Shown here: positions 22,834-61,690 of the stretch, piece after piece
Layout: each line of letters begins with the position of its first letter
Numbering within the stretch: the first letter of the stretch is position 1
NCBI GenBank assembly: GCA_017553325.1
Contig: JAFZMH010000007.1
Span: 32,751-96,750 of the forward strand
Direction of reading: 5' to 3'
DNA length: 64,000 bases
Source: Clostridia bacterium
GTDB taxonomy: Bacteria > Bacillota > Clostridia > Christensenellales > CAG-917
Translations under genes and position numbers: made by a program
Notes under the pieces: generated by a model
The model's database searches: none
What the model was told of the DNA's origin: nothing
What the model saw: only the letters and a program-made list of their open reading frames with translations

Positions 22834-22912
22834 ACATTCACAATATTTATTAAATATTTAAGATATTTTAAAATTCAACTCTACCGGATTAAACTTAATT
22901 AATTATTTGGGT

Positions 22913-22973
22913 GCGATTGTTTGTATGAGTTTCGAGGCAGAATGCTCTAACAAAGAAAACCGCCAAACAGCGC
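22913..22973 (+). repeat. AYGAG-core structured intergenic element, copy A (short form)
   Basis: Closing helix tgtttg (22918-23) / caaaca (22964-69), extended by gcg/cgc. Core ATGAG-TTTC-GAGGCAG-[gca gaa tgc hairpin]-CTCTAACAAA-GAAA-ACCGC. Ends 3 nt before the ftsY stop codon (22976-78). Confidence 0.75.
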
Positions 22974-22975
22974 GC

Positions 22976-23869
22976 TCAAAGCAATGCGTTAATGAAATCC
23001 GTCGCGTCAAACGGAATTAAATCATCAATTTTCTCGCCAACACCTACGTATACGACGGGAAGCCCAATCTCGTCGCTGATTGCAAGCACGACGCCGCCCT
23101 TTGCGGTTCCGTCGAGTTTTGTGAGGATAATGCCGTCCGTTTCAATGTCTTCCGAGAAGATTTGCGCCTGCGACACCGCGTTTTGTCCCGTCGTGGCGTC
23201 GAGCACGAGATACTTCCTGAAATCTGCCTCGGGCAATTCTCTGTCCACGACGCGACAAATCTTTTGAAGTTCCGCCATAAGGTTCTTCTTGTTGTGAAGT
23301 CTGCCTGCGGTGTCCACCAAAATCACGTCGTTTCCTCTCGCCTTTGCGCTGGATATTGCGTCGAATACGACAGCCGCGGGGTCCGCGCCCTCGTTGTGGC
23401 GTATAACTCTGACGCCCGCTCGCTCGCCCCAAACTTCAAGCTGTTCGCTTGCAGCCGCTCTAAACGTGTCCGCGGCAGCCACGACGACGCTCTTGCCCTG
23501 CTCTTTGAACATGTGTGCAAGTTTGCCGACAGCCGTAGTCTTGCCCACGCCGTTGACGCCGGACAGGAGTATAACGAGCGGATATTCGTATTCCGGCACG
23601 TCGTAGTCGATGTCCTCAATCATGATTTTGCGGAGCAATTCTTTTGCGTCTTCCGGCTTTTTTATCTTCTCCTTGAAGGCTCTGTCTTTGAGTTCCTCGA
23701 TGAGGTTTTCAGTCGCCGTAAGCCCGACGTCCGCCGTCAAAAGTGCTTCCTCTAAACTCTCGTAAAACTCGTCGTCAAGTTCGCGAGCGGAAAATGCAAA
23801 GAACAACTTTTTTGAAAAAGCGTCCTTCGTCTTTTTTATACCTTCTGCAATTTTTTTGAAAAAACCCAT
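22976..23869 (-). CDS. ftsY: Signal recognition particle receptor FtsY
   Basis: 297 aa. GVNGVGKTT, DTAGR, TKLDG SRP-GTPase motifs. Confidence 0.96.
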   Translation of the reverse strand: MGFFKKIAEGIKKTKDAFSKKLFFAFSARELDDEFYESLEEALLTADVGLTATENLIEELKDRAFKEKIKKPEDAKELLRKIMIEDIDYDVPEYEYPLVILLSGVNGVGKTTAVGKLAHMFKEQGKSVVVAAADTFRAAASEQLEVWGERAGVRVIRHNEGADPAAVVFDAISSAKARGNDVILVDTAGRLHNKKNLMAELQKICRVVDRELPEADFRKYLVLDATTGQNAVSQAQIFSEDIETDGIILTKLDGTAKGGVVLAISDEIGLPVVYVGVGEKIDDLIPFDATDFINALL

Positions 23870-28731: not shown

Positions 28732-28805
28732 GCGAGCGTAGTTTAGTGGCAAAATAAAAGCTTCCCAAGCTTTGGTTGTGGGTTCGATTCCCATCGCTCG
28801 CTCCA
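28732..28805 (+). tRNA. tRNA-Gly (anticodon CCC)
   Basis: Cloverleaf by hand: acceptor GCGAGCG/CGCTCGC, D arm GTTT-AGTGGCA-AAAT, anticodon stem AAAGC/GCTTT with loop TTCCCAA, T arm GTGGG-TTCGATT-CCCAT, encoded CCA. Confidence 0.9.
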
Positions 28806-31942: not shown

Positions 31943-32208
31943 GCTGTGCTAGACGGGGAGCTTGCGGTGCCCTGTAAACTACAATCCGCAATAGTAGTGT
32001 CGAACGCCAATCGAGGCTTTTGTTATGGTTGGTTGCGCATAGCAAGGAGTGATGATAGCAAGGTCCCGTGCAATGTCATACTGCGAACCGTGTCAGAGCT
32101 TGACCGCAGCAGCACTAAACAGGCGTTGGCGTGTGCCACGGGGAAACTTTGAAGGAGCCGCCTACTATGTTTCCACTTCGGTTTCAAACGTCGGAGTTGG
32201 TGCACAGT
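31943..32208 (+). ncRNA. ffs: Signal recognition particle RNA, large Bacillus-type (scRNA with Alu domain)
   Basis: The 5' GTGCTAGACGGGGAGCTTGCGGTGCCCTGTAAACTACAATCCGC matches the B. subtilis scRNA Alu-domain start (GUGCUAGACGGGGAGGUAGCGGUGCCCUGUACCUGCAAUCCGC). The S-domain block is GAACCGTGTCAGAGCTTGACCGCAGCAGCAC, then GTGCCACGGGG. The 3' GGTGCACAG pairs with the 5' CTGTGC. Confidence 0.85.
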
Positions 32209-32212
32209 ATTG

Positions 32213-32250
32213 CAAAGCGTATCGGCAAAATGCTGATACGCTTTGTAATT
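32213..32250 (+). terminator. SRP RNA terminator hairpin
   Basis: aaagcgtatc (32214-23) / gatacgcttt (32235-44), then gtaatt. The U-tail is weak. Confidence 0.55.
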
Positions 32251-32267
32251 ATTCTACGTCAAATATG

Positions 32268-32288
32268 GCTGAAAGCGAAGTGGGAACA
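32268..32288 (-). repeat. Inverted fragment of the SRP RNA 3' region
   Basis: The reverse complement tgttcccacttcgctttcagc resembles tgtttccacttcggtttcaaac (32168-32189), about 17 of 21 positions. Confidence 0.5.
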
Positions 32289-32382
32289 AAACCACGCTGC
32301 TGCGGACGCGAACCATTGTTCGCCCCGTTTTTTATATTAAACGAGCGATATCCTATGCGGAATATTTTGAAATAGTGGCGTA

Positions 32383-32424
32383 GTTTCCCACTTCGGTTTC
32401 AAATGTCAGAGTTGGTGCACAGTA
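32383..32424 (+). repeat. Direct partial copy (42 nt) of the SRP RNA 3' end
   Basis: gtttcccacttcggtttcaaatgtcagagttggtgcacagta versus the gene copy gtttccacttcggtttcaaacgtcggagttggtgcacagta. There are 3 differences including 1 indel. Confidence 0.85.
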
Positions 32425-32427
32425 AAA

Positions 32428-32465
32428 CAAATCACACTGGGTTTACTCGGTGTGATTTGCTTTTT
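32428..32465 (+). terminator. Hairpin plus T-run after SRP 3' copy 2
   Basis: caaatcacac / gtgtgatttg (10 bp), loop tgggtttactcg, then cttttt. Confidence 0.65.
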
Positions 32466-32544
32466 ATCGAGCAAAAAGCCTGTTGTGCTGCAAGGGTGCG
32501 GATTTTATCCGCTCCGCCAAATATTAAACAAAGTTTCGCAGTGA

Positions 32545-32628
32545 CCACGGGGAAACTTTGAAGGAGCCACCTACTATGTTCCCGCTTCGGTTTCAAACGT
32601 CAGAGTTGGTGCACAGTATTGCAAAGCG
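32545..32628 (+). repeat. Direct partial copy (84 nt) of the SRP RNA 3' end
   Basis: 4 mismatches to 32136-32219. Includes the last 73 nt of the RNA plus the first nucleotides of the terminator (attgcaaagcg). Confidence 0.9.
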
Positions 32629-32660
32629 CATTGGGTTTTTCTCGATGCGTTTTGTAATTT
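32623..32660 (+). terminator. Hairpin after SRP 3' copy 3
   Basis: aaagcgcat / atgcgtttt (one G-T pair). The loop tgggtttttctcg is nearly identical to the loop of the 32428-32465 hairpin. Confidence 0.55.
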
Positions 32661-32708: not shown

Positions 32709-34772
32709 TTATTTCTTCGCAGCTTCTTCTTCGCGCTTCTTGGCGTCTTCGATTATCTTCGCGTTTGCGGAGCCCGGGACTTCCTCGTAGCGGATGAGGT
32801 GCATTTCAAATTTGCCTCTGCCTTGCGTCATTGAGCGGAGATCCGTTGCATAGCGGAACATTTCTGCTTGCGGGACTTCTGCTGTGATGACTTGCTTGCC
32901 ACCGAGAGAGTCTGTGCCGAGGATTCTGCCTCTGCGCTTGTTCATATCGCCGAGGATGTCGCCGAGATAGTCATCAGGGACTGTGATCTTGGCTTCCATG
33001 ATCGGTTCAAGGAAGCAAGGACCTGCTGCTGCAACACCGTCTGCATATGAGAGTTTTGCTGCTGTGACGAATGCGATTTCTTTTGAGTCAACCGGGTGAT
33101 ATTTGCCATCATAAAGCGTAGCTTTAAGGTTGACCATCGGATAGCCTGCGAGCACGCCGTGTTTGATTGCTTCTCTCAAGCCCTTTTCAACTGCCGGAAT
33201 AAATTGACGTGGAACTGCACCGCCGACGACTTCGTCGACAAATTCAAACACGCCGTCTTCCGCGCCCGGCTCGTATTTGATGAACACGTCGCCGTATTGA
33301 CCTGCGCCACCTGATTGCTTTTTGTGCTTGCCTTCTGCGGATGCAGTCTTTCTGATCGTCTCGCGGTATGCAACTCTCGGTTCTTGCCAAGTGATGTCGA
33401 TGCCGAGTTTTGCCTTTACGCGCTTGCACATAATGTCGAGTTGTGCTTCGCCGAGACCGCTGATGAGAACGTCGCCTGTTTCGATGTTCTTTTCAACCTT
33501 GAAGGTCGCGTCTTCTTCCTGCATCTTGATAAGACCTTGGATGGCTTTTTCTTCGTCTTTCAAAGCCTTGACCGCATAGGAGATGACCGGCGCCGGGAAC
33601 TCAATCGTGTCGTAGACAACTTTGTTGTCTGCCGCCGCGAGCGTATCGTTGGTGTTCGTATAGGTAAGTTTTGCAAGAGCGCCGATGTCGCCTGCTTCCA
33701 AAGAGTCGACCGCCTCTTGTTTCTTGCCCTTCAAAACGTAGATTGTGCCAACCTTTTCAGGTTTTTCAACCGTGTTGTTGTTGACGGAATCACCGGAAGT
33801 AAGTTTGCCTGTGACAACCTTGAAGATGAGGAGTTTTCCAACGTACGGGTCAACGACTGATTTGATGACCTGTGCGCTGAACGGTTTGGTTGCGTCAACC
33901 GCGACTTCGACGTGTGCGCCGTTCAAGGTTGCGCCAATCTTGTGCGCGCGCTCGGGATGAGGCATAAGGTCGACGAGTTTGTCAAGAAGTCTCTTGACGC
34001 CCTTGGACGTTTGTGCGTTGCCTGCAACGAGCGGGATGAAGATTTCGTCTGCGATTGCGGCGTGCAAACCTTTTTGAATTTCTTCTTCGGTGAACGCTTC
34101 GCCGTCAAAGAACTTCATCATGAGGTCTTCGTCCGTTTCGGCGACCATTTCCATGATCTTGCCGTTGTATTCTTCAAGTTTGCCTTGGAGATTTGCGGGA
34201 GTTGCAACCTCTTTGCCTTGAAGATCAAAAGCCTTGTTTGCAAGAACGTCAACGACGCCCGTCATCTTTCCGCCTTCCATAATCGGAAGTTCGATAGGAA
34301 CGACGCTCTTGAATTTTGCCATAATAGCATCAACCGTGCCGAAGAAATCGGAGTTTTCTTTGTCAACTGCGTTGACGAAGATGAGCGCCGCAGTCTTCTT
34401 TTCTTTGCACATATCAAGAGCTTTCTCGGTGCCGACTGTGAGTGAACCGCTTGCGGCCGTCACGACGACTGCGCTGTCTGCCGCGTGAAGCGCGGCAACC
34501 ATTTCGCCTTCGAAATCGAAGAAACCGGGAACGTCCAAGATGTTTATCTTGCAATCACGGTACAAGGCATAGCCGAGCGACATCGAAATCGATATTTTGC
34601 GCTTGATTTCTTCGTCGTCATAGTCCATCGTGGATGTGCCGTCGTCAACTTTGCCGAAACGGTCAATGCATTTCGTTTCGAACATCATTGCTTCGGCAAG
34701 CGTCGTTTTGCCTTCGCCGGAGTGACCGATGAGAGCAACGTTGCGAATAAAGTCTGTTTTGAAATTTTTCAT
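32709..34772 (-). CDS. Elongation factor G paralogue (EF-G2-like translational GTPase)
   Basis: 687 aa. G1 GHSGEGKTTL rather than the canonical AHIDAGKTT, DVPGFFDF, NAVDK, EF-G domains II-V. Not in an rpsL-rpsG-fusA-tuf context. Confidence 0.85.
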   Translation of the reverse strand: MKNFKTDFIRNVALIGHSGEGKTTLAEAMMFETKCIDRFGKVDDGTSTMDYDDEEIKRKISISMSLGYALYRDCKINILDVPGFFDFEGEMVAALHAADSAVVVTAASGSLTVGTEKALDMCKEKKTAALIFVNAVDKENSDFFGTVDAIMAKFKSVVPIELPIMEGGKMTGVVDVLANKAFDLQGKEVATPANLQGKLEEYNGKIMEMVAETDEDLMMKFFDGEAFTEEEIQKGLHAAIADEIFIPLVAGNAQTSKGVKRLLDKLVDLMPHPERAHKIGATLNGAHVEVAVDATKPFSAQVIKSVVDPYVGKLLIFKVVTGKLTSGDSVNNNTVEKPEKVGTIYVLKGKKQEAVDSLEAGDIGALAKLTYTNTNDTLAAADNKVVYDTIEFPAPVISYAVKALKDEEKAIQGLIKMQEEDATFKVEKNIETGDVLISGLGEAQLDIMCKRVKAKLGIDITWQEPRVAYRETIRKTASAEGKHKKQSGGAGQYGDVFIKYEPGAEDGVFEFVDEVVGGAVPRQFIPAVEKGLREAIKHGVLAGYPMVNLKATLYDGKYHPVDSKEIAFVTAAKLSYADGVAAAGPCFLEPIMEAKITVPDDYLGDILGDMNKRRGRILGTDSLGGKQVITAEVPQAEMFRYATDLRSMTQGRGKFEMHLIRYEEVPGSANAKIIEDAKKREEEAAKK

Positions 34773-42369: not shown

Positions 42370-42440
42370 GCTAAATGAATTATACTATTTAACAACAAAT
42401 GAGCGCGATATTTGGATGAAGAGCGCAAATAATAATGTTT

Positions 42441-42563
42441 AAAACCGCTCGGGAGTGATGAGATGCTAGGAAGGACGCTTTGTTTGAAAAGAGCGTACTT
42501 TTGCGTACGTGATTGCACTAAAAAAGCGACCTAACAACGCAGGTCGCTCTCTCGTGCGGTTTT
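42441..42563 (+). repeat. AYGAG-core structured intergenic element, copy E (long form)
   Basis: Closing helix aaaaccgc-t-cgggag (42441-55) / ctctcg-t-gcggtttt (42549-63). Core ATGAG-ATGC-TAGGAAG. Outer helix ggacgcttt/aaagcgacc. Apical hairpin gcgtac-ttttgc-gtacgt. 3' core CTAACAAC-GCAG-GTCGC. The 3' arm overlaps the stop codon (42562-64) of the reductase gene. Confidence 0.8.
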
Positions 42564-44670
42564 ATTTAATCTTGTGGATGGCAACGTCATACGCCGCTCT
42601 AGTAGCATCCGCAATACGCCCTATCTTGCTTGCGTCGCCCACGACGAAGAGTCTTTCAAACTTGCCATCAAACTCTTTTGCGAGATTGTTGACGGGACGT
42701 GCGCCAAGCGACAGCACCACTGCGTCGAAATCATAGTGCTCGGGTGCGCCTGTGGACACCGGCTTTCTGTTCTTGTCAAGTTTGACGGGTTCAAGCACTA
42801 CGCCTGTCTCATCAATCGAGTTGAGTTTGTGAGAAAGAATATATTCCGTCCCCTTCGCGTTGAGTTTGGGGAGAACGTCGTCGAGGTGCTGGAACCAAGT
42901 GCCGGGGGCGACTCTGTCCGCCATTTCGACGATTGTCACCTTGTTGCCGTATTCGACGAGCATTTCGGCGGTTTCAAGTCCCGTCATACCCGAGCCGATA
43001 AGAGCGACGTTTTTGTTTTCGAGATACTTTTCACCGCTCAAAATCTGCGTCGTCGTGTAGACGTTTTCGCGGTTGACGCCCTCGATTGAACGCGGACGCA
43101 CTGCGCACGCGCCGGTTGCAATGATGACTGCGTACGGGTTGAGCGCTTGTACGGTTTCAAGGTCCGCCTTTACGCCGAGACGAATTTCCGCGCCGACTTT
43201 TTCCGCATTGGTCTTCATATCGACGAAGCACCAGCCGAGTTTCTCCTTCTTTGGCGGTTTGTTGGCGAGTTGAATTTGTCCGCCGACTTCCTTTGCCTGT
43301 TCGAGAACGATAGGTTTGAACCCGCGTCTACCAAGCATTTCCGCCGCCGTGAGACCCGCAACGCCTGCGCCTACGACGACGACAGTTCTGCCCTCGCCGT
43401 CCTTGACGAGATTGTCAAATTCTCTTTCGCGCCCGACAGTCGGGTTGACGGAGCAATAGCCGTGGTCGCCGTGATAGGCGTTGTCCTGCATGGATTGTAT
43501 GCAGTAGAGACAGCAGATGCAACGCTTGATTTCGTCCTCTCTGCCCTCTTGCGCCTTTTCCGCCCAGTGCGGGTCAGCGATGTGCGGACGCCCGAGCGAC
43601 ACGAAGTCTTGTACGCCCTCTTCAAGTTGTTTTTCCGCTTGTTCGGGAGTTCTTATGAGGTTAGCGGCTATGACCGGAATGTTCACTTCCTTCTTGACCG
43701 CCGCCGCGAGATACTTTCTCCAGCCGCATTCAAAACTCGTTGGCTCTAGCCAATAGTTGAACGTGTCGTAGCTTGCGGACGAGACGTCAATTGCGTCCAC
43801 GCCCATATCGGCGATTGCCTTCGCATATTTGACGCCCTCTTCCATCGTGTAGCCTTTGCCGAGTTTGCCTATCTTCTCGTAGAATTCGTCAATGGTGAGA
43901 CGGACGACGATTGGATAATCTCCGCATTCCTTTCTTATGCCCTCGATGATTTCGCGCACGAACCGCAAGCGGTTTTCAAAACTTCCGCCGTATTCGTCAT
44001 TTCTGTGGTTTGTATTCGGGCTCAAAAATTGTTGGATGAGGTAGCCGTGCGTGCCGTGGAGTTCAACGCCGTCCACGCCTGCTTTTTTGCAGCGCACCGC
44101 ACCGTCTATATACTGTTGAATGAGTTGTTTGACTTCCTTGTGAGAGAGCGCTCTGACCGCGGTGTTCGCATAATATGCGGGTTCGCAAGCGGAGGCGGAG
44201 ACAGCCTTCTTGGAAATGTGATGCTTCTCAAGGAATGGCGCGAGTTTCGGAGCCATACTGAACAGCATCTTCGGGAACTTCTTGCAAATTCTCGTGCACG
44301 CGATGCAGAGAGGCACGGTGCCGATTGCAAGACCGACGTTTTGACGGCCCGGGTGATGCAGTTGCACGAAGAGTTTTGCGCCGTGTCTGTGAATACGATT
44401 TGCAAATTCCGTTAGTCCCGGTATTTGATAATCGTGGCTCACGCCGAGTTGCGCAAACGCCGCCGCGCCCGTCTTGTCGTTGATACGGGTAATCTCGGTC
44501 ATGATGAGTCCCGTTCCGCCCTTCGCGCGCTCCTCATAGTAGTCCATGAGTTGCTCGGTTGTGCATCCGTCGAATTGTCCGAAGCCCATGAGCATCGGGG
44601 ACATAACTATACGGTTTTTGATCTCGCAGTTGCCTATTTTCATAGGACTGAACAACATTTTGTATTCCAT
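42562..44670 (-). CDS. OYE-type FMN domain fused to FAD/NAD(P) oxidoreductase (2-enoate reductase / 2,4-dienoyl-CoA reductase family)
   Basis: Start trimmed to ATG 44670 (MEYKMLFSPMKIGN). LHHPGRQ, Fe-S motif CICCLYC...C, Rossmann VVVVGAGVAGLTAAE and ALIGSGMTGLE. Confidence 0.8.
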   Translation of the reverse strand: MEYKMLFSPMKIGNCEIKNRIVMSPMLMGFGQFDGCTTEQLMDYYEERAKGGTGLIMTEITRINDKTGAAAFAQLGVSHDYQIPGLTEFANRIHRHGAKLFVQLHHPGRQNVGLAIGTVPLCIACTRICKKFPKMLFSMAPKLAPFLEKHHISKKAVSASACEPAYYANTAVRALSHKEVKQLIQQYIDGAVRCKKAGVDGVELHGTHGYLIQQFLSPNTNHRNDEYGGSFENRLRFVREIIEGIRKECGDYPIVVRLTIDEFYEKIGKLGKGYTMEEGVKYAKAIADMGVDAIDVSSASYDTFNYWLEPTSFECGWRKYLAAAVKKEVNIPVIAANLIRTPEQAEKQLEEGVQDFVSLGRPHIADPHWAEKAQEGREDEIKRCICCLYCIQSMQDNAYHGDHGYCSVNPTVGREREFDNLVKDGEGRTVVVVGAGVAGLTAAEMLGRRGFKPIVLEQAKEVGGQIQLANKPPKKEKLGWCFVDMKTNAEKVGAEIRLGVKADLETVQALNPYAVIIATGACAVRPRSIEGVNRENVYTTTQILSGEKYLENKNVALIGSGMTGLETAEMLVEYGNKVTIVEMADRVAPGTWFQHLDDVLPKLNAKGTEYILSHKLNSIDETGVVLEPVKLDKNRKPVSTGAPEHYDFDAVVLSLGARPVNNLAKEFDGKFERLFVVGDASKIGRIADATRAAYDVAIHKIK

Positions 44671-44756
44671 AATTCTCCCCAAATTATTTTTTTAATACGT
44701 AAATATTTTAGCACTTTGAAATAGATATTTCAAGAGGGGTATAGCATTTTTTGTAA

Positions 44757-44780: not shown

Positions 44781-44803
44781 CTATGGTTGCATTTTGTTAA
44801 AAT

Positions 44804-44918
44804 CGTTTGATTTGGACGAGATGAGAGAAAGCGTGCTTTTTGCGAAAGCTAAGTGTACAAAGGCGTACGCGGTGCTTGAGAACAAAGTGCGCTGACAAAG
44901 CAGTCGCTAAATCAAGCG
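44804..44918 (+). repeat. AYGAG-core structured intergenic element, copy D (long form)
   Basis: 12-bp closing helix cgtttgatttgg (44804-15) / ctaaatcaagcg (44907-18, two G-T pairs). Core ACGAG-ATGA-GAGAAAG. Outer helix agcgtgcttt/aaagtgcgct. Apical hairpin gtgtac-aaaggc-gtacgc. 3' core CTGACAAA-GCAG-TCGC. The 3' arm is the folD stop codon plus its last three codons. Confidence 0.8.
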
Positions 44919-45764
44919 ATTTTGGATTTTATAAGCCTTAACCGTGTTTTGAAGGAGCATAGTCACCGTCATAGGACCTACGCCACCCGGGACGGGGGTT
45001 ATATAACTGCACTTTGGCGCGACGTTTTCAAAATCAACGTCTCCGCAGAGTTTGCCGTTTTCGTCTCTGTCCATGCCGACGTCCACGACGACTGCGCCCT
45101 CTTTGACCATATCGGCTTTGAGGAATTTCGCCTTGCCGATTGCCACGCAAACTATGTCAGCCTGACGGGTGATTTCGCCGAGGTTTTTCGTGCGACTGTG
45201 GCAAATCGTCACCGTTGCGTTTTTGTCGAGAAGAAGTTGAGCAAGAGGTTTGCCGACGAGGTTGGAGCGTCCCACCACGACAGCGTTTTTGCCTTCAAGT
45301 TCGATATTGTAGTGCTCAAGTATGCGCATAATGCCAAACGGCGTGCAAGCGATTAGGCACTCGCGTCCCGTCCAAAGTCTGCCCTTTTGCACGTAGTGGC
45401 AACCGTCGACGTCCTTTGCGGGGTCGATGAGGTCGAGAAGCGGGTTTTCGTCGAGATGCTTAGGGAGCGGAAGTTGCAAGATTATGCCGGAAACCTCAGG
45501 GTTCTCGTTTAAAGACTTTATCGTCTCAGCGACTTGCTCTGCCGTGCTGTCTCCCGGGAGCGTGCACATAAACGACTTGACGCCGACTTCTTCGCATCCT
45601 TTCATTTTGTTGCGCACGTACACGAGCGACGCGGGGTTGTCGCCGACGAGAATAACCGCAAGCCCTACGGGCTTGTCAAGGTTCATAGCCTTGATTTCAT
45701 CGACTTCTGCTTTGATATTTTGTCTCGTCACGCTTGCAACGAGTTTTCCGTCTAGAATTGTCAT
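44907..45764 (-). CDS. folD: Bifunctional methylenetetrahydrofolate dehydrogenase/cyclohydrolase
   Basis: 285 aa. ILVGDNPAS.VYV, GIILQLPLP, VVVGRSNLVGKP, PVPGGVGPMT motifs. Confidence 0.95.
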   Translation of the reverse strand: MTILDGKLVASVTRQNIKAEVDEIKAMNLDKPVGLAVILVGDNPASLVYVRNKMKGCEEVGVKSFMCTLPGDSTAEQVAETIKSLNENPEVSGIILQLPLPKHLDENPLLDLIDPAKDVDGCHYVQKGRLWTGRECLIACTPFGIMRILEHYNIELEGKNAVVVGRSNLVGKPLAQLLLDKNATVTICHSRTKNLGEITRQADIVCVAIGKAKFLKADMVKEGAVVVDVGMDRDENGKLCGDVDFENVAPKCSYITPVPGGVGPMTVTMLLQNTVKAYKIQNRLI

Positions 45765-49570: not shown

Positions 49571-50767
49571 TTATTTTTTGAGCACGAGTTCTTTGGTCTC
49601 TCTTGCGATAGAAAGTTCCTCGTTTGTCGGGAGAATGAGCACTTTGACCTTGCTCGACGGTTTGGAGATAACTCTCGTGCCGTCTCCTCTGCCCTTGTTG
49701 GCTTCGAAGTCAAAGTCTACGCCCAAGTACTCCATATCGCGCATAACGAGTTCACGCATATAGTCGCTGTGCTCGCCGATACCGCCCGTAAAGACGATTG
49801 CGTCCACGCCGTTCAAGGTTGCCGCAAACGCGCCGATATACTTTTTGATGCGATACGCCGTGATGTCGACTGCGAGTTTTGCCTTTTCGTTGCCTTCCTT
49901 TATTGCGCTTTCAAGGTCGCGCATATCACTTGATAGTTCGCTCACGCCGAGCATACCGCACTTTTTGTTGAGGAATTGAACGACTTCGTCGGCGGGTATG
50001 CCGAGTTTCTTCCTCATAAAGTCGATTGCCGCCGGGTCGATGTCGCCGGAACGCGTTCCCATGACGAGTCCTTCAAGAGGCGTAAAGCCCATCGAAGTAT
50101 CTTGGCATTTGCCGTCCTTGACCGCGGAGATTGAAGAGCCGTTGCCAAGATGGCAGATGATGATCTTTGCATCCTTGCGTCCCAAAATCTTGATCGTCTC
50201 TTCGCTCACGAACTTGTGAGACGTGCCGTGAAAACCGTATTTGCGAATTTTGTATTTGTCGTACGCTTCGTACGGAATGCCGTACATATAAGCCTTCGGC
50301 GGCATCGTGCTGTGGAAAGTCGTGTCGAACACCGTGACCATAGGTACGCCCGGCATGACCTCTCTGCAACTCTTGATGCAGGCGATGTTGCCCGGCATAT
50401 GGAGCGGTCCTAGTTCCGCATTCTTTTCGCAGATACGGATGACTTCGTCATCAACCACAACGGAATGCTTGAAATCTTCTCCGCTGTGGAGGACTCTGTG
50501 CCCGACTGCGGCAATCTCTTTCGTGGACTTGATTGCACCGTATTTTTCGTCGACCATCGCTTTAAGCACGAGGTTGATGGCGTCGGTGTGGTCCTTCATG
50601 TCCTGCTTGATGTTGAGAGTTCTGCCGTCGGCGGTCTTTTGGGTGAGTTCGCTCCCCGGGAAGGTGATACGCTCGCAGAGACCTTTGAGCAATACGCTTT
50701 CCGTCTCCATGTCGATAAGTTGGTATTTGAGTGATGAACTGCCTGCGTTGATAACAAGTATTTTCAT
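49571..50767 (-). CDS. ackA: Acetate kinase
   Basis: 398 aa. MKILVINAGSSSLKYQL, GHRVLHSGE, FHGTSH motifs. Confidence 0.96.
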   Translation of the reverse strand: MKILVINAGSSSLKYQLIDMETESVLLKGLCERITFPGSELTQKTADGRTLNIKQDMKDHTDAINLVLKAMVDEKYGAIKSTKEIAAVGHRVLHSGEDFKHSVVVDDEVIRICEKNAELGPLHMPGNIACIKSCREVMPGVPMVTVFDTTFHSTMPPKAYMYGIPYEAYDKYKIRKYGFHGTSHKFVSEETIKILGRKDAKIIICHLGNGSSISAVKDGKCQDTSMGFTPLEGLVMGTRSGDIDPAAIDFMRKKLGIPADEVVQFLNKKCGMLGVSELSSDMRDLESAIKEGNEKAKLAVDITAYRIKKYIGAFAATLNGVDAIVFTGGIGEHSDYMRELVMRDMEYLGVDFDFEANKGRGDGTRVISKPSSKVKVLILPTNEELSIARETKELVLKK

Positions 50768-50801
50768 TTCTGTCTCCTAATGTTGTTTTCTAAAATCCTG
50801 A

Positions 50802-50907
50802 TTATTTGTATGAGTTGCAAGGAACCGTGCTTTTGACCGCAATGAGCGTACTAAGCCGTACGTGATTTGTGGGCAAAAGTGCGTTGACACAGCAAATCGC
50901 CAAATAA
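50802..50907 (+). repeat. AYGAG-core structured intergenic element, copy C (long form)
   Basis: Closing helix ttatttg (50802-08) / caaataa (50901-07). Core ATGAG-TTGC-AAGGAAC. Outer helix cgtgcttttg (50826-35) / caaaagtgcg (50874-83) with tandem G-T pairs. Apical hairpin gcgtac-taagcc-gtacgt. 3' core TTGACACA-GCAA-ATCGC. Lies between the pta stop (50917) and the ackA RBS. Confidence 0.8.
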
Positions 50908-50916
50908 AATAGCACG

Positions 50917-51915
50917 TTATTTAACTGACTGAAGTGCTGTTATGGCCGCTACAGCCGCTATATCTTCCGCAACACAACCACGGCTTAAATCGTTGACCGG
51001 AAGTGCAAGACCTTGCATAATCGGTCCGATTGCCATGCAGTTGCCAAAGCGTTGGGCAAGTTTGTAGCCGATGTTGCCTGCGTCGAGGTTCGGGAATACG
51101 AGGACGTTTGCTTGTCCTGCGACGGGGCTGTCGCCCGCTTTTTGCTTTGCTACGCTGTCAACCAAGGACGCGTCGAGTTGAAGTTCGCCGTCCACGCAGA
51201 TTTCCGGATGTTGTTCGCGTACCTTGTTGTAGGCGGAACGAACCTTCTCGACAGATTCGTGATTTGCGCTTCCCTTCGTGGAGAACGAGAGCATTGCAAT
51301 CTTCGGCTCCATCTCGCAGATCTTCTTCGCGGAGTCCGCCGCGGCAACGACTATGTCTTTGAGTTGGTCGTCCGTCGGGTACGGAATGACCGCGCAATCG
51401 GAGAAAATGTATGCCGGATACTTCTTGTATTTGAATTCCTCGGGAGGAACCATAACGAAGCAACTGGAAACCGAACTGATGCCGGGAGCCGCCTTTACGA
51501 CTTGGAATGCCGCACGGGAGACGTCTGCGGAACTGAATACCGCGCCGCCCACGACGCCGTCTACGTCACCGCGCTTCAAAGCGACGCACGCAAAGAACAT
51601 ATTGTTTTGGGTGACGAGTTGTCTCGCCTGCTCTTCCGTCATGCCCTTCGCTTTGCGAAGTTCAAACAAAGTGTTTGCATATTCGTCGACGTGTTTGCTC
51701 GTCTTCGGATCGTCAAAAGCAACGCCCGTCAAATCGACTTCCGGGAATTTTGCCTTGATTTCCTCTTCGTTGCCGATGAGAACGACTTTGCAGACGCCTT
51801 TCTTTGTGAGGATTTCCGCTGCCTTTGCGGCTCTTACGTCAAATCCTTCCGCGAGTGCGATGGTCTTGCCGAGTAAACTTGCTCTTTTCATAAGGTTTTC
51901 AACAAATTCTGTCAT
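50917..51915 (-). CDS. pta: Phosphate acetyltransferase
   Basis: Start trimmed to ATG 51915 (MTEFVENLMKRA). 332 aa PTA_PTB domain (ALAEGFDVRAAKAA, GGAVFSSADVSR, SFSTKGSA). Confidence 0.93.
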   Translation of the reverse strand: MTEFVENLMKRASLLGKTIALAEGFDVRAAKAAEILTKKGVCKVVLIGNEEEIKAKFPEVDLTGVAFDDPKTSKHVDEYANTLFELRKAKGMTEEQARQLVTQNNMFFACVALKRGDVDGVVGGAVFSSADVSRAAFQVVKAAPGISSVSSCFVMVPPEEFKYKKYPAYIFSDCAVIPYPTDDQLKDIVVAAADSAKKICEMEPKIAMLSFSTKGSANHESVEKVRSAYNKVREQHPEICVDGELQLDASLVDSVAKQKAGDSPVAGQANVLVFPNLDAGNIGYKLAQRFGNCMAIGPIMQGLALPVNDLSRGCVAEDIAAVAAITALQSVK

Positions 51916-51928
51916 AAACGCTCCAAAA

Positions 51929-51945
51929 TGCAAATATCATTTGCA
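51929..51945. promoter_or_regulatory. Perfect palindrome TGCAAAT-atc-ATTTGCA in the pta 5' leader
   Basis: 7-bp arms, 14 nt upstream of the pta ATG, downstream of a TTGCTT-17-TATAAT promoter candidate on the minus strand. Could be an operator or an RNA hairpin. Confidence 0.35.
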
Positions 51946-54906: not shown

Positions 54907-55653
54907 TCAGTAGGCGTTCTTTATCGTGACCGACAAGAACGGAGTGTAGTCAAAGAGATTCCACACGGACTCCTCGGGCGGATATACGCGGAAAACAAGC
55001 TCCTGTCCGCCGACGGGGTGCGCAAATCTGAGTTCCGTTGCCCACAGACAAAGAGGTGCGGACGGATACTTTCCGCTGCCGTAGCGCTTGTCACCGACGA
55101 TTGGGTTGCCCATATTTTGCATTTGCACGCGAATTTGATGTCCTCTGCCCGTCACGAGGTTGACGGATACGAGCGCAAAGTCTCCCTTCCCCTCAACCGT
55201 CTTCGTCGCAAGGACCTTGTAGTCGAGTTCGGCATACTTTGCTCCCTCGCTGAGCGCGGGGACGACCTTCACCATGTTCGTGTCAGGGAATTTTTTAAGA
55301 TAACAAGTGAGTTTGTCCGCCTTGTATCTCGGCACTCCTTCTAAAATTGCGAAGTATTTTTTGTCAACGTCACCGTTTTTGATGGCTTCCGAAAGCCTTG
55401 ACGCCGCTTTGGACGTTTTGGCAAACACCATAACCCCGCCCGTCGGTCTGTCGAGACGATGTACGAGCCCGAGATATGCGTCGCCGGGTTTGTTGTACTT
55501 TTCAACGAGATATTGCTTCAAGAGCGTGAGCATATCAACGTCTCCGCTCTCGTCCGCTTGACAAGGCACGTCAACCGGCTTTACGACAACCAAAATGTGA
55601 TTGTCCTCAAAAACTATCTGCAAATCTTTGTAAGTGATGTCTTTGTTTCCCAT
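54907..55653 (-). CDS. RluA-family pseudouridine synthase
   Basis: 248 aa. GLVHRLDRPTGGVMVFAKT catalytic Asp motif and GRGHQIRVQM. Confidence 0.88.
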   Translation of the reverse strand: MGNKDITYKDLQIVFEDNHILVVVKPVDVPCQADESGDVDMLTLLKQYLVEKYNKPGDAYLGLVHRLDRPTGGVMVFAKTSKAASRLSEAIKNGDVDKKYFAILEGVPRYKADKLTCYLKKFPDTNMVKVVPALSEGAKYAELDYKVLATKTVEGKGDFALVSVNLVTGRGHQIRVQMQNMGNPIVGDKRYGSGKYPSAPLCLWATELRFAHPVGGQELVFRVYPPEESVWNLFDYTPFLSVTIKNAY

Positions 55654-55701
55654 TTTTTACCATTTTTTTATCTAATCTATTTTTATATTAAACCCACAAA
55701 A

Positions 55702-55773
55702 CTGCTTGATTGAGATGAGTTTCGAGGAAGGTGCGCACGCAAACCTGACAAGGAAAACCGCTCAATCAAACTG
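55702..55773 (+). repeat. AYGAG-core structured intergenic element, copy B (short form)
   Basis: 9-bp closing helix ttgattgag (55706-14) / ctcaatcaa (55761-69). Core ATGAG-TTTC-GAGGAAG-[aggt...acct hairpin]-CTGACAAG-GAAA-ACCGC. The 3' arm contains the methyltransferase stop codon (55766-68). Confidence 0.78.
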
Positions 55774-56629
55774 TTTTGAACGTAGCAAAGGCAGTGCAAC
55801 CCTGCGGAAGAATCAGTCCTTCTTCAGTCTGTAAACCGATTTCGTCCGCGTCAATAACCGCGTTATTCGGCAAGGCGAGTTTCAATATGTTTGCCATAAC
55901 CGTAGGTTGCAGTCCCGTCGTATAACTGTTGAGGCACACGAACAGCGGATTGTCGCCAAGAAGCGATGATACAAGATTCATAAGTTCGCTTATTCCCTCT
56001 TCGATCTTCCACTTTTCACCGTTTGGACCTCTGCCGAAGGAGGGCGGGTCGAGGATTATCGCGTCGTAGTGTTTGCCACGTCTGATTTCTCTTTGGCAGA
56101 ATTTGAAGCAGTCGTCGACGATATATCTCATCTCTCTGTCTTCAAGTCCCGACAACCTGACGTTTTCGCCCGCGCGCTCGACCATCGCCTTCGCGCTGTC
56201 AACGTGGCACACGCTCGCACCCGCTTTAAGGCAGGCGACGGACGCCGCGCCCGTATAGCCGAACAGGTTGAGGACGCTGATTTTACGCCCCGCGGTTTCA
56301 ATGAGTTTCATCATTCTGTCCCAGTTGACAGCCTGCTCGGGGAAAAGTCCCGTATGTTTGAACCCCATGAGTTTGAGGGAGAACGTAAGGTCGCGCCAGC
56401 CGAGTTTAAACTCCGTATTGATGGGTTTTTGCCATTTCCACGCGCCACCGCCGGAAGAGCTGCGTTCGTACACCGCCGAGATGTTTTTGTTGCTTCTCAG
56501 CGGAGTTTTTGCGTGCCAAATTACCTGCGGGTCGGGACGCAGTAAAACGAGATCTCCCCATCTCTCGAGTTTTTCGCCGTCGCCGGTTGCGATGACGGAG
56601 TATTCTTTCCAATCGGGTGCGATTTTCAT
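55766..56629 (-). CDS. Class I SAM-dependent (rRNA large-subunit RlmI/RlmK-like) methyltransferase
   Basis: 287 aa. LNLFGYTGAASVA SAM-binding motif and ILDPPSFGRG. Confidence 0.75.
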   Translation of the reverse strand: MKIAPDWKEYSVIATGDGEKLERWGDLVLLRPDPQVIWHAKTPLRSNKNISAVYERSSSGGGAWKWQKPINTEFKLGWRDLTFSLKLMGFKHTGLFPEQAVNWDRMMKLIETAGRKISVLNLFGYTGAASVACLKAGASVCHVDSAKAMVERAGENVRLSGLEDREMRYIVDDCFKFCQREIRRGKHYDAIILDPPSFGRGPNGEKWKIEEGISELMNLVSSLLGDNPLFVCLNSYTTGLQPTVMANILKLALPNNAVIDADEIGLQTEEGLILPQGCTAFATFKTV

Positions 56630-61613: not shown

Positions 61614-61690
61614 GGAGGCATGGCTCAGTTGGTTAGAGCACACGGTTCACATCCGTGAGGTCGTTGGTTCGAGTCCAACTGTCTCCACCA
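61614..61690 (+). tRNA. tRNA-Val (anticodon CAC)
   Basis: Cloverleaf by hand: acceptor GGAGGCA/TGTCTCC, D arm GCTC...GAGC, anticodon stem CACGG/CCGTG with loop TTCACAT, T arm GTTGG-TTCGAGT-CCAAC, encoded CCA. Confidence 0.88.

Follow-up and report, generated by a model that had tools for sequence, protein, structure and literature searches.

A short-form hairpin element overlapping a methyltransferase stop codon in a Clostridia bacterium, a member of a dispersed and possibly mobile family

The window analysed here, that is the whole 64-kb stretch of DNA, carries on its minus strand a SAM-methyltransferase gene followed by an RluA-type pseudouridine synthase gene, and most of the 112-nt gap between them is occupied by the feature that we call copy B. 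The initial annotation had described this gap, the perfect 9-bp helix formed by positions 55706-55714 and 55761-55769, and the placement of the methyltransferase TGA (tca in complement, 55766-55768, minus strand) within the 3' arm of that helix. All of these were confirmed, the methyltransferase ORF of 287 amino acids spanning 55766-56629 and the next minus-strand ORF starting at 55653. The features of the locus, with the evidence for each, are as follows.

54907-55653, minus strand: RluA-type pseudouridine synthase gene (PF00849), its start 43 nt beyond copy B
55697-55779, plus strand: copy B, whole element, short form (covariance model, 56 bits, E = 4.8e-12)
55697-55702, plus strand: outer part of the basal helix P1, 5' arm CAAAAC (sequence; MFE folds of both strands)
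55706-55714, plus strand: inner P1, 5' arm TTGATTGAG (sequence; shuffle test)
55715-55719, plus strand: conserved ATGAG (alignment of long forms, RNAalifold)
55720-55723, plus strand: P2, 5' arm TTTC, pairing with GAAA at 55753-55756 (covarying middle pairs)
55724-55727, plus strand: conserved GAGG of the internal loop (alignment, RNAalifold, covariation)
55728-55746, plus strand: P3 remnant, AAGGTGCGCACGCAAACCT (pairwise alignment to the long forms L015 and L101)
55747-55752, plus strand: conserved GACAAG, 3' side of the internal loop (motif comparison, alignment)
55753-55756, plus strand: P2, 3' arm GAAA (alignment)
55757-55761, plus strand: conserved ACCGC, in the family consensus RYCGC; C55761 also closes P1
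55761-55769, plus strand: inner P1, 3' arm CTCAATCAA (sequence; shuffle test)
55766-55768, minus strand: TGA stop of the SAM-methyltransferase gene 55766-56629 (PF10672) (ORF, Pfam)
55773-55778, plus strand: outer P1, 3' arm GTTTTG, partner of CAAAAC (sequence; folds)

Copy B had been considered the short form of a repeated element, and correctly so. A covariance model built solely from other family members matches it over the full range of 1-127, 9 nt standing in place of model positions ~38-90. It is structured on the plus strand, to which both flanking genes are antisense. The basal helix P1 (9 + 6 bp), the core, P2 and the loop are all retained. In the conserved ATGAG the A is bulged, the TGA faces the partner triplet CCG here and a TCG-type triplet in the family, and the final G forms with A55757 a covarying purine-purine pair. 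The GAGG segment provides, in the family, a G-C pair and tandem G.A/A.G pairs with the GACA of the 3' side. What copy B does not have is 45 apical nucleotides, comprising distal P3 and the GTAC hairpin P4; save for this gap it can be aligned over its whole length to AAGGTGCGCACGC-subtype long forms (L015, at pta-ackA, and L101). Since the gap is bordered by an 8-nt direct repeat, GCGCACGC, copy B is a slippage-type deletion derivative, and it is probably a decayed copy. The same apical module has been lost independently by copy C of the window and by L094, a member of the Patescibacteria type.

The arm-gap-arm pattern of copy B is expected 0.00 times in shuffled sequence. Its folding z-scores are modest (-2.1 for the plus strand, -1.75 for the minus strand), so that its significance derives from family membership rather than from hairpin energy, and with DNA parameters its two strands are near-equal (-13.0 vs -12.3 kcal/mol). 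The methyltransferase stop lies 4 nt from the core, atypical for a family in which 11-15 nt is usual, since the frame bypasses the outer position and continues for four codons inside the helix. The suggestion that copy B modulates termination or readthrough at this stop found no sign in its favour; TAA, TGA and TAG are all used by family members, and a conserved extension ORF is absent.

Two relatives of copy B were first found by sensitive self-comparison and motif searches. The covariance model finds five copies within the 64 kb, all on the plus strand, and in each of the five the 3' basal arm contains the stop codon of a minus-strand gene. The others are listed below, the identities of the neighbouring genes being taken from Pfam and annotation.

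22906-22981, plus strand: copy C, short form (43.3 bits, E = 8.5e-9); its 3' arm holds the TGA of ftsY (22976-23869, minus strand), stop offset 3
42440-42565, plus strand: long-form copy (74.5 bits); its 3' arm holds the TAA of an Oxidored_FMN/Pyr_redox gene (42562-44682, minus strand), stop offset 1
44798-44925, plus strand: long-form copy (67.6 bits); its 3' arm holds the TAG of folD (44907-45764, minus strand)
50792-50919, plus strand: copy A, long form (82.2 bits), between pta (50917-51933) and ackA (49571-50767), the pta TAA lying at its 3' end

The five are alike in their core motifs only, and blastn detects one weak relative. On the plus strand the plan is P1, (U)AUGAR, a 4-bp P2, RAGG, a variable hairpin, RACAMR, P2', RYCGC and P1', P2 being TTTC/GAAA in two of the first-found copies and TTGC/GCAA in the third.

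Beyond the window, the covariance model together with a metagenome scan yielded at least 78 distinct sequences in 86 non-redundant placements, directly establishing the multicopy status of the family. The model was constructed from 32 pattern matches and then found further, pattern-independent members. A looser pattern, in which the two middle P2 pairs were left free, gave at least 120 matches in metagenome contigs, a set biased towards the fixed letters of the pattern and containing the same locus from several metagenomes; such counts are non-independent, many loci being redundant samples of one locus. About half of the loose-pattern matches listed have all four P2 pairs and 7-8 of the eight P1 pairs, and these well-paired matches are nearly all long forms with a core of 88-93 nt. 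ORFs were called mechanically throughout. The hosts fall into two very distant groups, gut Clostridia and Patescibacteria (candidate-phyla-radiation). The S7 protein encoded next to several copies is 80-83% identical to Kaiserbacteria, Parcubacteria and Paceibacterota sequences, the host assignment of environmental loci resting on one protein. The window belongs to an uncultured member of the gut Clostridia. Its methyltransferase is 85% identical to that of 'Firmicutes bacterium CAG:475' and Christensenellales MAGs, and identical copies of the element occur on other contigs of the window's own species.

Searches of Rfam 15 gave no match overlapping an element, whether for the whole window at the gathering threshold, for the three first-found copies at E <= 10 or for nine loci with typical long forms at E <= 0.1. 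A strict short-form pattern matched the species-representative genomes just five times, by chance and inside coding regions; viral contigs contained one chance match and no real member, and phage and plasmid collections contained no match. By eye, none of the hammerhead, hairpin-ribozyme, twister, K-turn, sarcin-ricin or 11-nt-receptor consensus motifs appears to fit the core. A literature search returned no description of the family. A catalogue of candidate RNAs from gut microbiomes contains unnamed palindromic candidates, among which the present family may be included (PMC8040213).

The full-length member is a rod of ~127 nt. For the alignment of 32 sequences RNAalifold gives a single rod of 40 pairs, with compensatory double changes in 32 of them. 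The proportion of paired cells, 89.7%, may be compared to 62.3% after shuffling and to 36-39% when partners are slid by 1-3 columns, and the covariation score is 0.692 as against 0.188 for shuffled alignments: the structure is under selection. The basal helix P1 comprises 18-20 bp of free sequence, and complementarity stops sharply, 0-3 nt from the model ends. Above P1 comes a bulged A (column 19), unpaired in the RNAalifold consensus and invariant in the 32 pattern-selected long forms, for which the scan pattern required A, and then a 3-bp step of U.G, G-C and A-U, its U.G pair invariant in the 32 pattern-selected members and replaced by C-G in the window copy at 44798. The purine-purine pair is G.A in 21 and A.G in 11 of the 32 sequences, with no exception. 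Covariation is also seen at the two central pairs of P2, with 17 double changes for columns 25/107 and 16 for columns 26/106. Above P2 are the internal loop, with its G-C pair and tandem G.A/A.G pairs, the variable P3 and a further helix; the tip of the rod is a sequence-conserved apical (C)GUAC-loop-GUAC(G) hairpin. Evidence of conservation comes here from the free positions of the pattern, the apical hairpin and the purine-pair covariation, and not from the letters that the pattern fixed. A small ORF beginning at the conserved ATG was considered and rejected, as the ORFs differ in length and their third codon changes in step with its helix partner.

The two strands of the element are not equivalent. 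The plus strand, antisense to the gene, is the better folder with RNA parameters in 41 of 48 pattern matches and in 64 of the 78 distinct members (p = 4e-11; mean energy over the 78 members of -53.3 kcal/mol, against -45.1 kcal/mol for the sense strand), and with DNA parameters in 70 of the 78 (p = 1.5e-12). Over all aligned helices G.U pairs exceed A.C pairs by 46 to 24 (p = 0.012, the pattern-fixed pair being left out), an excess seen in the inner helices (25:7, p = 0.002); the outer ten P1 pairs are balanced (21:17). The loops of the plus strand are purine-rich with G.A pairs, where the mRNA strand would give C.U mismatches. On the plus strand of the element GC skew is below zero, both in the window and in 34 of the 43 locus-strand comparisons made for loci of 4 kb or more, and since a compositional skew should act in the opposite way, the strand bias looks selected. 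The copies at L056 and L124 are reversed relative both to the gene and to replication, as judged by GC skew.

When the element is read in the AUGAR...RYCGC orientation, an opposite-strand ORF nearly always lies to its right. In 61 of the 86 placements an ORF of this kind, either contig-cut or no shorter than 80 codons, ends within 60 nt. In 40 of these 61 the stop codon falls in the outermost 0-4 nt of the basal helix, that is 11-15 nt from the core, and in 53 it lies between -5 and +16; TAA is used in 31, TGA in 19 and TAG in 11. Stop-codon overlap is the most regular property of the family, not an accident of copy B. The upstream genes are housekeeping genes, namely rpsG, fusA, rpmF, secY, tig, lysS, tpiA, pfk, ppdK, gdh, obg, pta, folD and ftsY. 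A near-identical element, including the whole basal helix, is present behind two different genes (L064-type and L118) and gives both of them an in-frame GAC-TGA, while the ORF at L103 reads through P1 and stops in the core. Placements with no docked stop are mostly the distal partners of tandem pairs, and in all seven independent tandem pairs the gene-proximal copy scores higher. At the two reversed loci, L056 and L124, the end of the element that otherwise meets a stop borders a ribosome-binding site. A recoding signal, such as a bacterial SECIS or a readthrough stimulator, was rejected in view of the three stop types and of variation that shows helix covariation rather than codon constraint.

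Turnover between relatives can be observed directly. Where protein identity is 85-86%, the pta-ackA and methyltransferase-rluA gaps of the related species are empty, although in these species family copies follow fusA and rpmF; at 92% identity, another species holds a long form in its pta-ackA gap, while its methyltransferase-rluA gap contains no element. Three strains of one species, with an identical methyltransferase protein, carry different family members after fusA, in flanks that are ~99% identical, and their fusA stop is TAA, TAG or TGA. Closely related elements at different loci display compensatory changes even in the outermost P1 pairs. No target-site duplications, conserved termini or conserved flank were found around the elements, the termini being merely A-rich or T-rich. 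The rpsG copies of several Patescibacteria are homologous along their length and look orthologous; they differ by compensatory P2 changes, e.g. TGAC/GTCA vs TGGC/GCCA, and the coupled switch from G.A to A.G is also seen among them. Tandem arrays of family copies occur.

As regards transcription, canonical terminators of the gene strand lie just past several copies (L037, L047, L076, L121 and the window copy at 44798-44925, beyond which the terminator scan places one at 44782-44761 on the minus strand), indicating that the element is transcribed within the sense 3' UTR. The orthologous pta-ackA gap is 11-17 nt long, with no element, in two related species. With copy A sitting inside this operon, the element is unlikely to act as an efficient sense terminator. 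Ahead of the window copies no promoter was predicted on the plus strand, and at most 6 of 80 loci share a positioned -10/-35 box at any one upstream position. T-rich runs are present at both ends of the element, paired with A-rich runs.

The explanation that we favour, tentatively, is that copy B, internally deleted and probably decayed, belongs to a dispersed family of hairpin-forming elements of ~127 nt that may be selfish or mobile. With the same reserve we suggest that such a hairpin might exploit the better-folding strand in single-stranded form, being recognised at its core and acted on at the base of its helix. The element would spread or persist via this strand (the plus strand in the window, the 'bottom' strand of the gene), and a putative enzyme would be guided by the conserved core but act at the helix base, a fixed distance away. 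The intermediate could be single-stranded DNA, as for attC sites, REP/RAYT and IS200/IS605 ends, or alternatively an RNA copied back into DNA. Copies would survive at essential or highly expressed genes whose stop codon their basal helix overlaps, because there the frame is unbroken, the stop is supplied or regenerated and clean deletion is impossible.

We infer mobility, the single-stranded intermediate, the enzyme and this argument from survivorship from several observations: five same-orientation copies in 64 kb and at least 78 distinct members; a structure under selection with a marked strand asymmetry; gain and loss between relatives, down to the strain differences after fusA; the same element behind two genes, the sharp helix end and the better state of the proximal copy in tandem pairs; the lack of a positioned plus-strand promoter, and hence of any sign of an RNA gene; and the equivalence of copy B to a long form minus 45 nt between direct repeats. 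Against mobility, no transposase, recombinase or reverse transcriptase was linked to the family, and neither a target motif nor a clean pair of empty and filled sites at near-identical flanks was obtained. The orthologous-looking rpsG copies, with compensation in situ, fit a host function equally well or better. Furthermore, where gene and replication run in the same direction, the strand that folds serves as leading-strand template and is seldom single-stranded, and selection alone offers no obvious explanation for the sharp stop spacing or the near-absolute orientation bias.

The main rival is a cis-acting element of the sense mRNA, placed in the 3' UTR or between cistrons, which we regard as unlikely. 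Here, with the rod beginning at the stop codon, a terminating ribosome would open the outer helix and so have the core placed at its mRNA entry channel. Such an element could protect against exonucleases, provide an RNase III-type processing site, or tune termination or translational coupling. REP sequences close to stop codons have been reported to tune termination and translational coupling. The position of the element between the stop and canonical terminators, so that it is transcribed with the gene, argues for a role in the sense mRNA, as do the spacing of 11-15 nt between stop and core in most members, the housekeeping and often highly expressed nature of the upstream genes (rpsG, fusA, rpmF, secY, tig, pta, folD), the good preservation in tandem pairs of the stop-touching copy alone, and the compensatory change among orthologous copies after rpsG. 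However, in 64-70 of the 78 members folding is poorer on the sense strand, whose loops are pyrimidine-rich, with U.G becoming C.A and G.A becoming C.U. All three stops are used with no extension ORF, a strong structure would come at a cost within the pta-ackA operon, where copy A is located, and in copy B the stop is just 4 nt from the core.

Somewhat less probable again is that the plus-strand RNA is the functional form, either as a small antisense RNA gene or as a terminator or insulator of antisense transcription at the end of the coding region. The loops rich in purines, the G.U and tandem G.A pairs and the G.A/A.G covariation are what structured RNAs typically show, the plus strand ends, at the complement of the stop, in a T-rich tract (consensus ...GUUUUAU), and the reversed copies at L056 and L124 lie in a 5' UTR upstream of the ribosome-binding site, where a plus-strand RNA is expected. 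The promoter evidence is opposed to this, with positioned -10/-35 boxes in no more than 6 of 80 loci at any one position and no promoter called ahead of the window copies; at several loci the 5' end of the element is directly adjoined by a terminator, so that a promoter would have no space. In addition, the wobble pairs are concentrated in the inner helices, not at the base near the T tract, where 21 G.U pairs face 17 A.C.

Retroposition of a SINE-like RNA appears improbable. Here a U-tailed plus-strand RNA would be primed on A-rich sequence at or after stops, which would place its complement directly behind the gene. The RNA-like signature, the fixed antisense orientation and the TAAAAC...GTTTTA termini by TAA stops would all be explained in this way. 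Diversity-generating retroelements, and so reverse transcriptases, are reportedly abundant in candidate-phyla-radiation lineages, which would agree with a retroposed origin. Nevertheless, no master gene, reverse transcriptase link or target-site duplication accompanies the family, and copies of opposite orientation, which A-tracts on the other strand ought to capture, are rare. Finally, an ordinary intrinsic terminator of the methyltransferase gene, suggested by the position directly after the stop and by a short U-rich run following the outer arm in the sense direction, or a chance hairpin, is scarcely credible and is contradicted by family membership: the internal motifs are common to at least 78 other elements, the stem is AU-rich, other members lie inside operons or have separate canonical terminators beyond them, and the chance expectation is 0.

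To return to the family itself, its behaviour is most like that of REP/REPIN elements and integron attC sites. REP/REPIN elements are multicopy extragenic hairpins situated just after genes, are transcribed in 3' UTRs and produce no target-site duplication. They are acted on as single-stranded DNA by RAYT, a Y1 HUH protein, may be long-lived at orthologous sites and, when near a stop codon, can influence the upstream gene. The present elements resemble them in being multicopy extragenic hairpins just after genes, transcribed in 3' UTRs and free of target-site duplications. However, REPs are palindromes of 20-40 nt with a conserved GTAG-type head, near-identical within a genome and lineage-specific, whereas the present family is a ~127-nt rod in which helix sequence is free, the internal loops are conserved and the tip is a GTAC hairpin, is common to Clostridia and Patescibacteria, and has a strict orientation and stop register. 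No RAYT gene was found in the annotated parts of the 64 kb and its ~20-kb flanks.

The likeness to attC sites lies in a variable sequence with a conserved fold, an apical part of varying length, a position directly behind an ORF and often overlapping its stop, a folding bottom strand and bulged bases that mark the strand. The greater stability of the bottom strand in 70 of 78 members (DNA parameters) is as would be anticipated of attC sites. In mobile integrons the bottom strand is the more stable, and in chromosomal integrons the bottom strands lie on the leading-strand template (PMC5371416). In the present family, the attC boxes R'' (RYYYAAC) and R' (GTTRRRY) were found within 30 nt of the ends in none of 86 members. 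The conserved part is internal, 18-20 bp from the base, rather than at the base as in attC, and, unlike cassettes, the flanks are syntenic housekeeping genes whose order is kept with or without the element. No integron integrase was found in the annotated flanks. As the defining features of both REP/REPIN and attC were lacking, the family is best described as an interspersed structured hairpin repeat that falls outside any named family.

The ends of IS200/IS605 elements are recognised as strand-specific hairpins and cleaved at a set distance, with neither terminal-inverted-repeat recognition nor target-site duplication. The present elements resemble them, and their non-autonomous derivatives (PATEs), in having a strand-specific hairpin with no terminal-inverted-repeat recognition and no target-site duplication. 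IS200/IS605 elements and PATEs differ in possessing two small subterminal hairpins and a conserved target tetra- or pentanucleotide, whereas here there is a single hairpin and no flank motif, and the folding strand would be the leading-strand rather than the lagging-strand template. The bacterial MITE-like ERIC, BOX, RUP and Correia elements are intergenic repeats of ~100-170 bp that form long transcript hairpins, exist as indel-derived long and short variants and have orientation-dependent effects on neighbouring mRNAs. A long intergenic hairpin with long and short variants is likewise found here, but the conserved terminal inverted repeats, the TA or other target duplications and the species restriction of those elements are not seen in the present family, which shows helix covariation and crosses phyla. 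A MITE of the DDE type was rejected, there being no conserved terminal inverted repeats and no flanking direct repeats.

It is possible, although we would not press the point, that a new class of nucleic-acid element is involved, namely a strand-specific rod of ~127 nt that docks its basal helix on the stops of core genes and from which a putative core-reading enzyme would measure 18-20 bp. If so, it would represent a new mobility or recombination system, or else a host function tied to the end of translation. Three regularities are combined in no known repeat family: a stop in the basal helix at a fixed distance from the core, a near-absolute orientation and structure in the non-mRNA strand. 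Their explanation would point to a new single-strand-specific mobility enzyme, possibly of use as a tool, or to a gene-end process in small-genome bacteria, and a widespread structured element linking two very distant bacterial groups would have been missed by current catalogues. The covariance model allows members to be masked or annotated in gut and groundwater metagenomes. In such metagenomes the elements alter the position of stop codons and give rise to differences between strains immediately after essential genes.

Behind fusA, three strains of one species could be compared directly over the following regions:

L010:3570-4650, first strain
L011:3575-4650, second strain
L012:3822-4650, third strain

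The fusA stop codon itself varies among them (TAA, TAG and TGA), and directly after it the strains carry differing members of the hairpin family, together with extra inserts. The DNA flanking this variable region is near-identical in all three. In L010 and L011, likeness to the left basal arm of L012 ends at GAT|ATTTAG, where the recurrent A.G mismatch is located, around 8 bp from the core.

Elements also occur as head-to-tail tandem pairs, some of them without any spacer:

L019:275-531
L013:2585-2842
L012:3855-4159
L101:7005-7286
L133:1442-1718
L029:1547-1933
L136:295-534

In all seven pairs the copy touching the stop codon has the higher score under the covariance model of the family. Rare reversed copies are also present:

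L056:2172-2296
L056:4138-4264
L124:2921-3046

In these, the structured (better-folding) strand is that of the neighbouring genes, and the element does not end on a stop codon: a ribosome-binding site follows its 3' end at a distance of 0-6 nt. The GC skew of these loci is likewise reversed.

In a sister species (92% identity), the spacer between the methyltransferase and rluA genes, occupied in the window by short-form copy B, measures 280 nt (L015:984-1282), and the covariance model finds no element there. The spacer does hold a motif like (G)ATTCATTGAG, repeated about five times and similar to the 5' basal arm of copy B (TTGATTGAG).

Rfam additionally places three RNA features in the window at gathering score, all without relation to the hairpin element:

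779-945, lysine riboswitch
28732-28802, tRNA gene
61614-61687, tRNA gene

The vicinity of the SRP RNA gene contains the following:

31944-32207, plus strand, large SRP RNA gene
32209-32250, plain 19-bp hairpin immediately beyond it
32351-32440, extra copy of the SRP RNA 3' end, 61% identical
32545-32634, extra copy of the SRP RNA 3' end, 93% identical
32709..34772, minus strand, fusA

The covariance model picks up this hairpin weakly (11.5 bits, E = 1.2) and over the basal helix alone; most likely the hairpin is the terminator of the SRP RNA rather than a family member. As a separate observation, the final ~72 nt of the SRP RNA plus 18 nt of flank recur beyond the gene (within 31944-32634); these extra copies, for which Rfam makes no SRP call, are located between the SRP RNA and the fusA stop.
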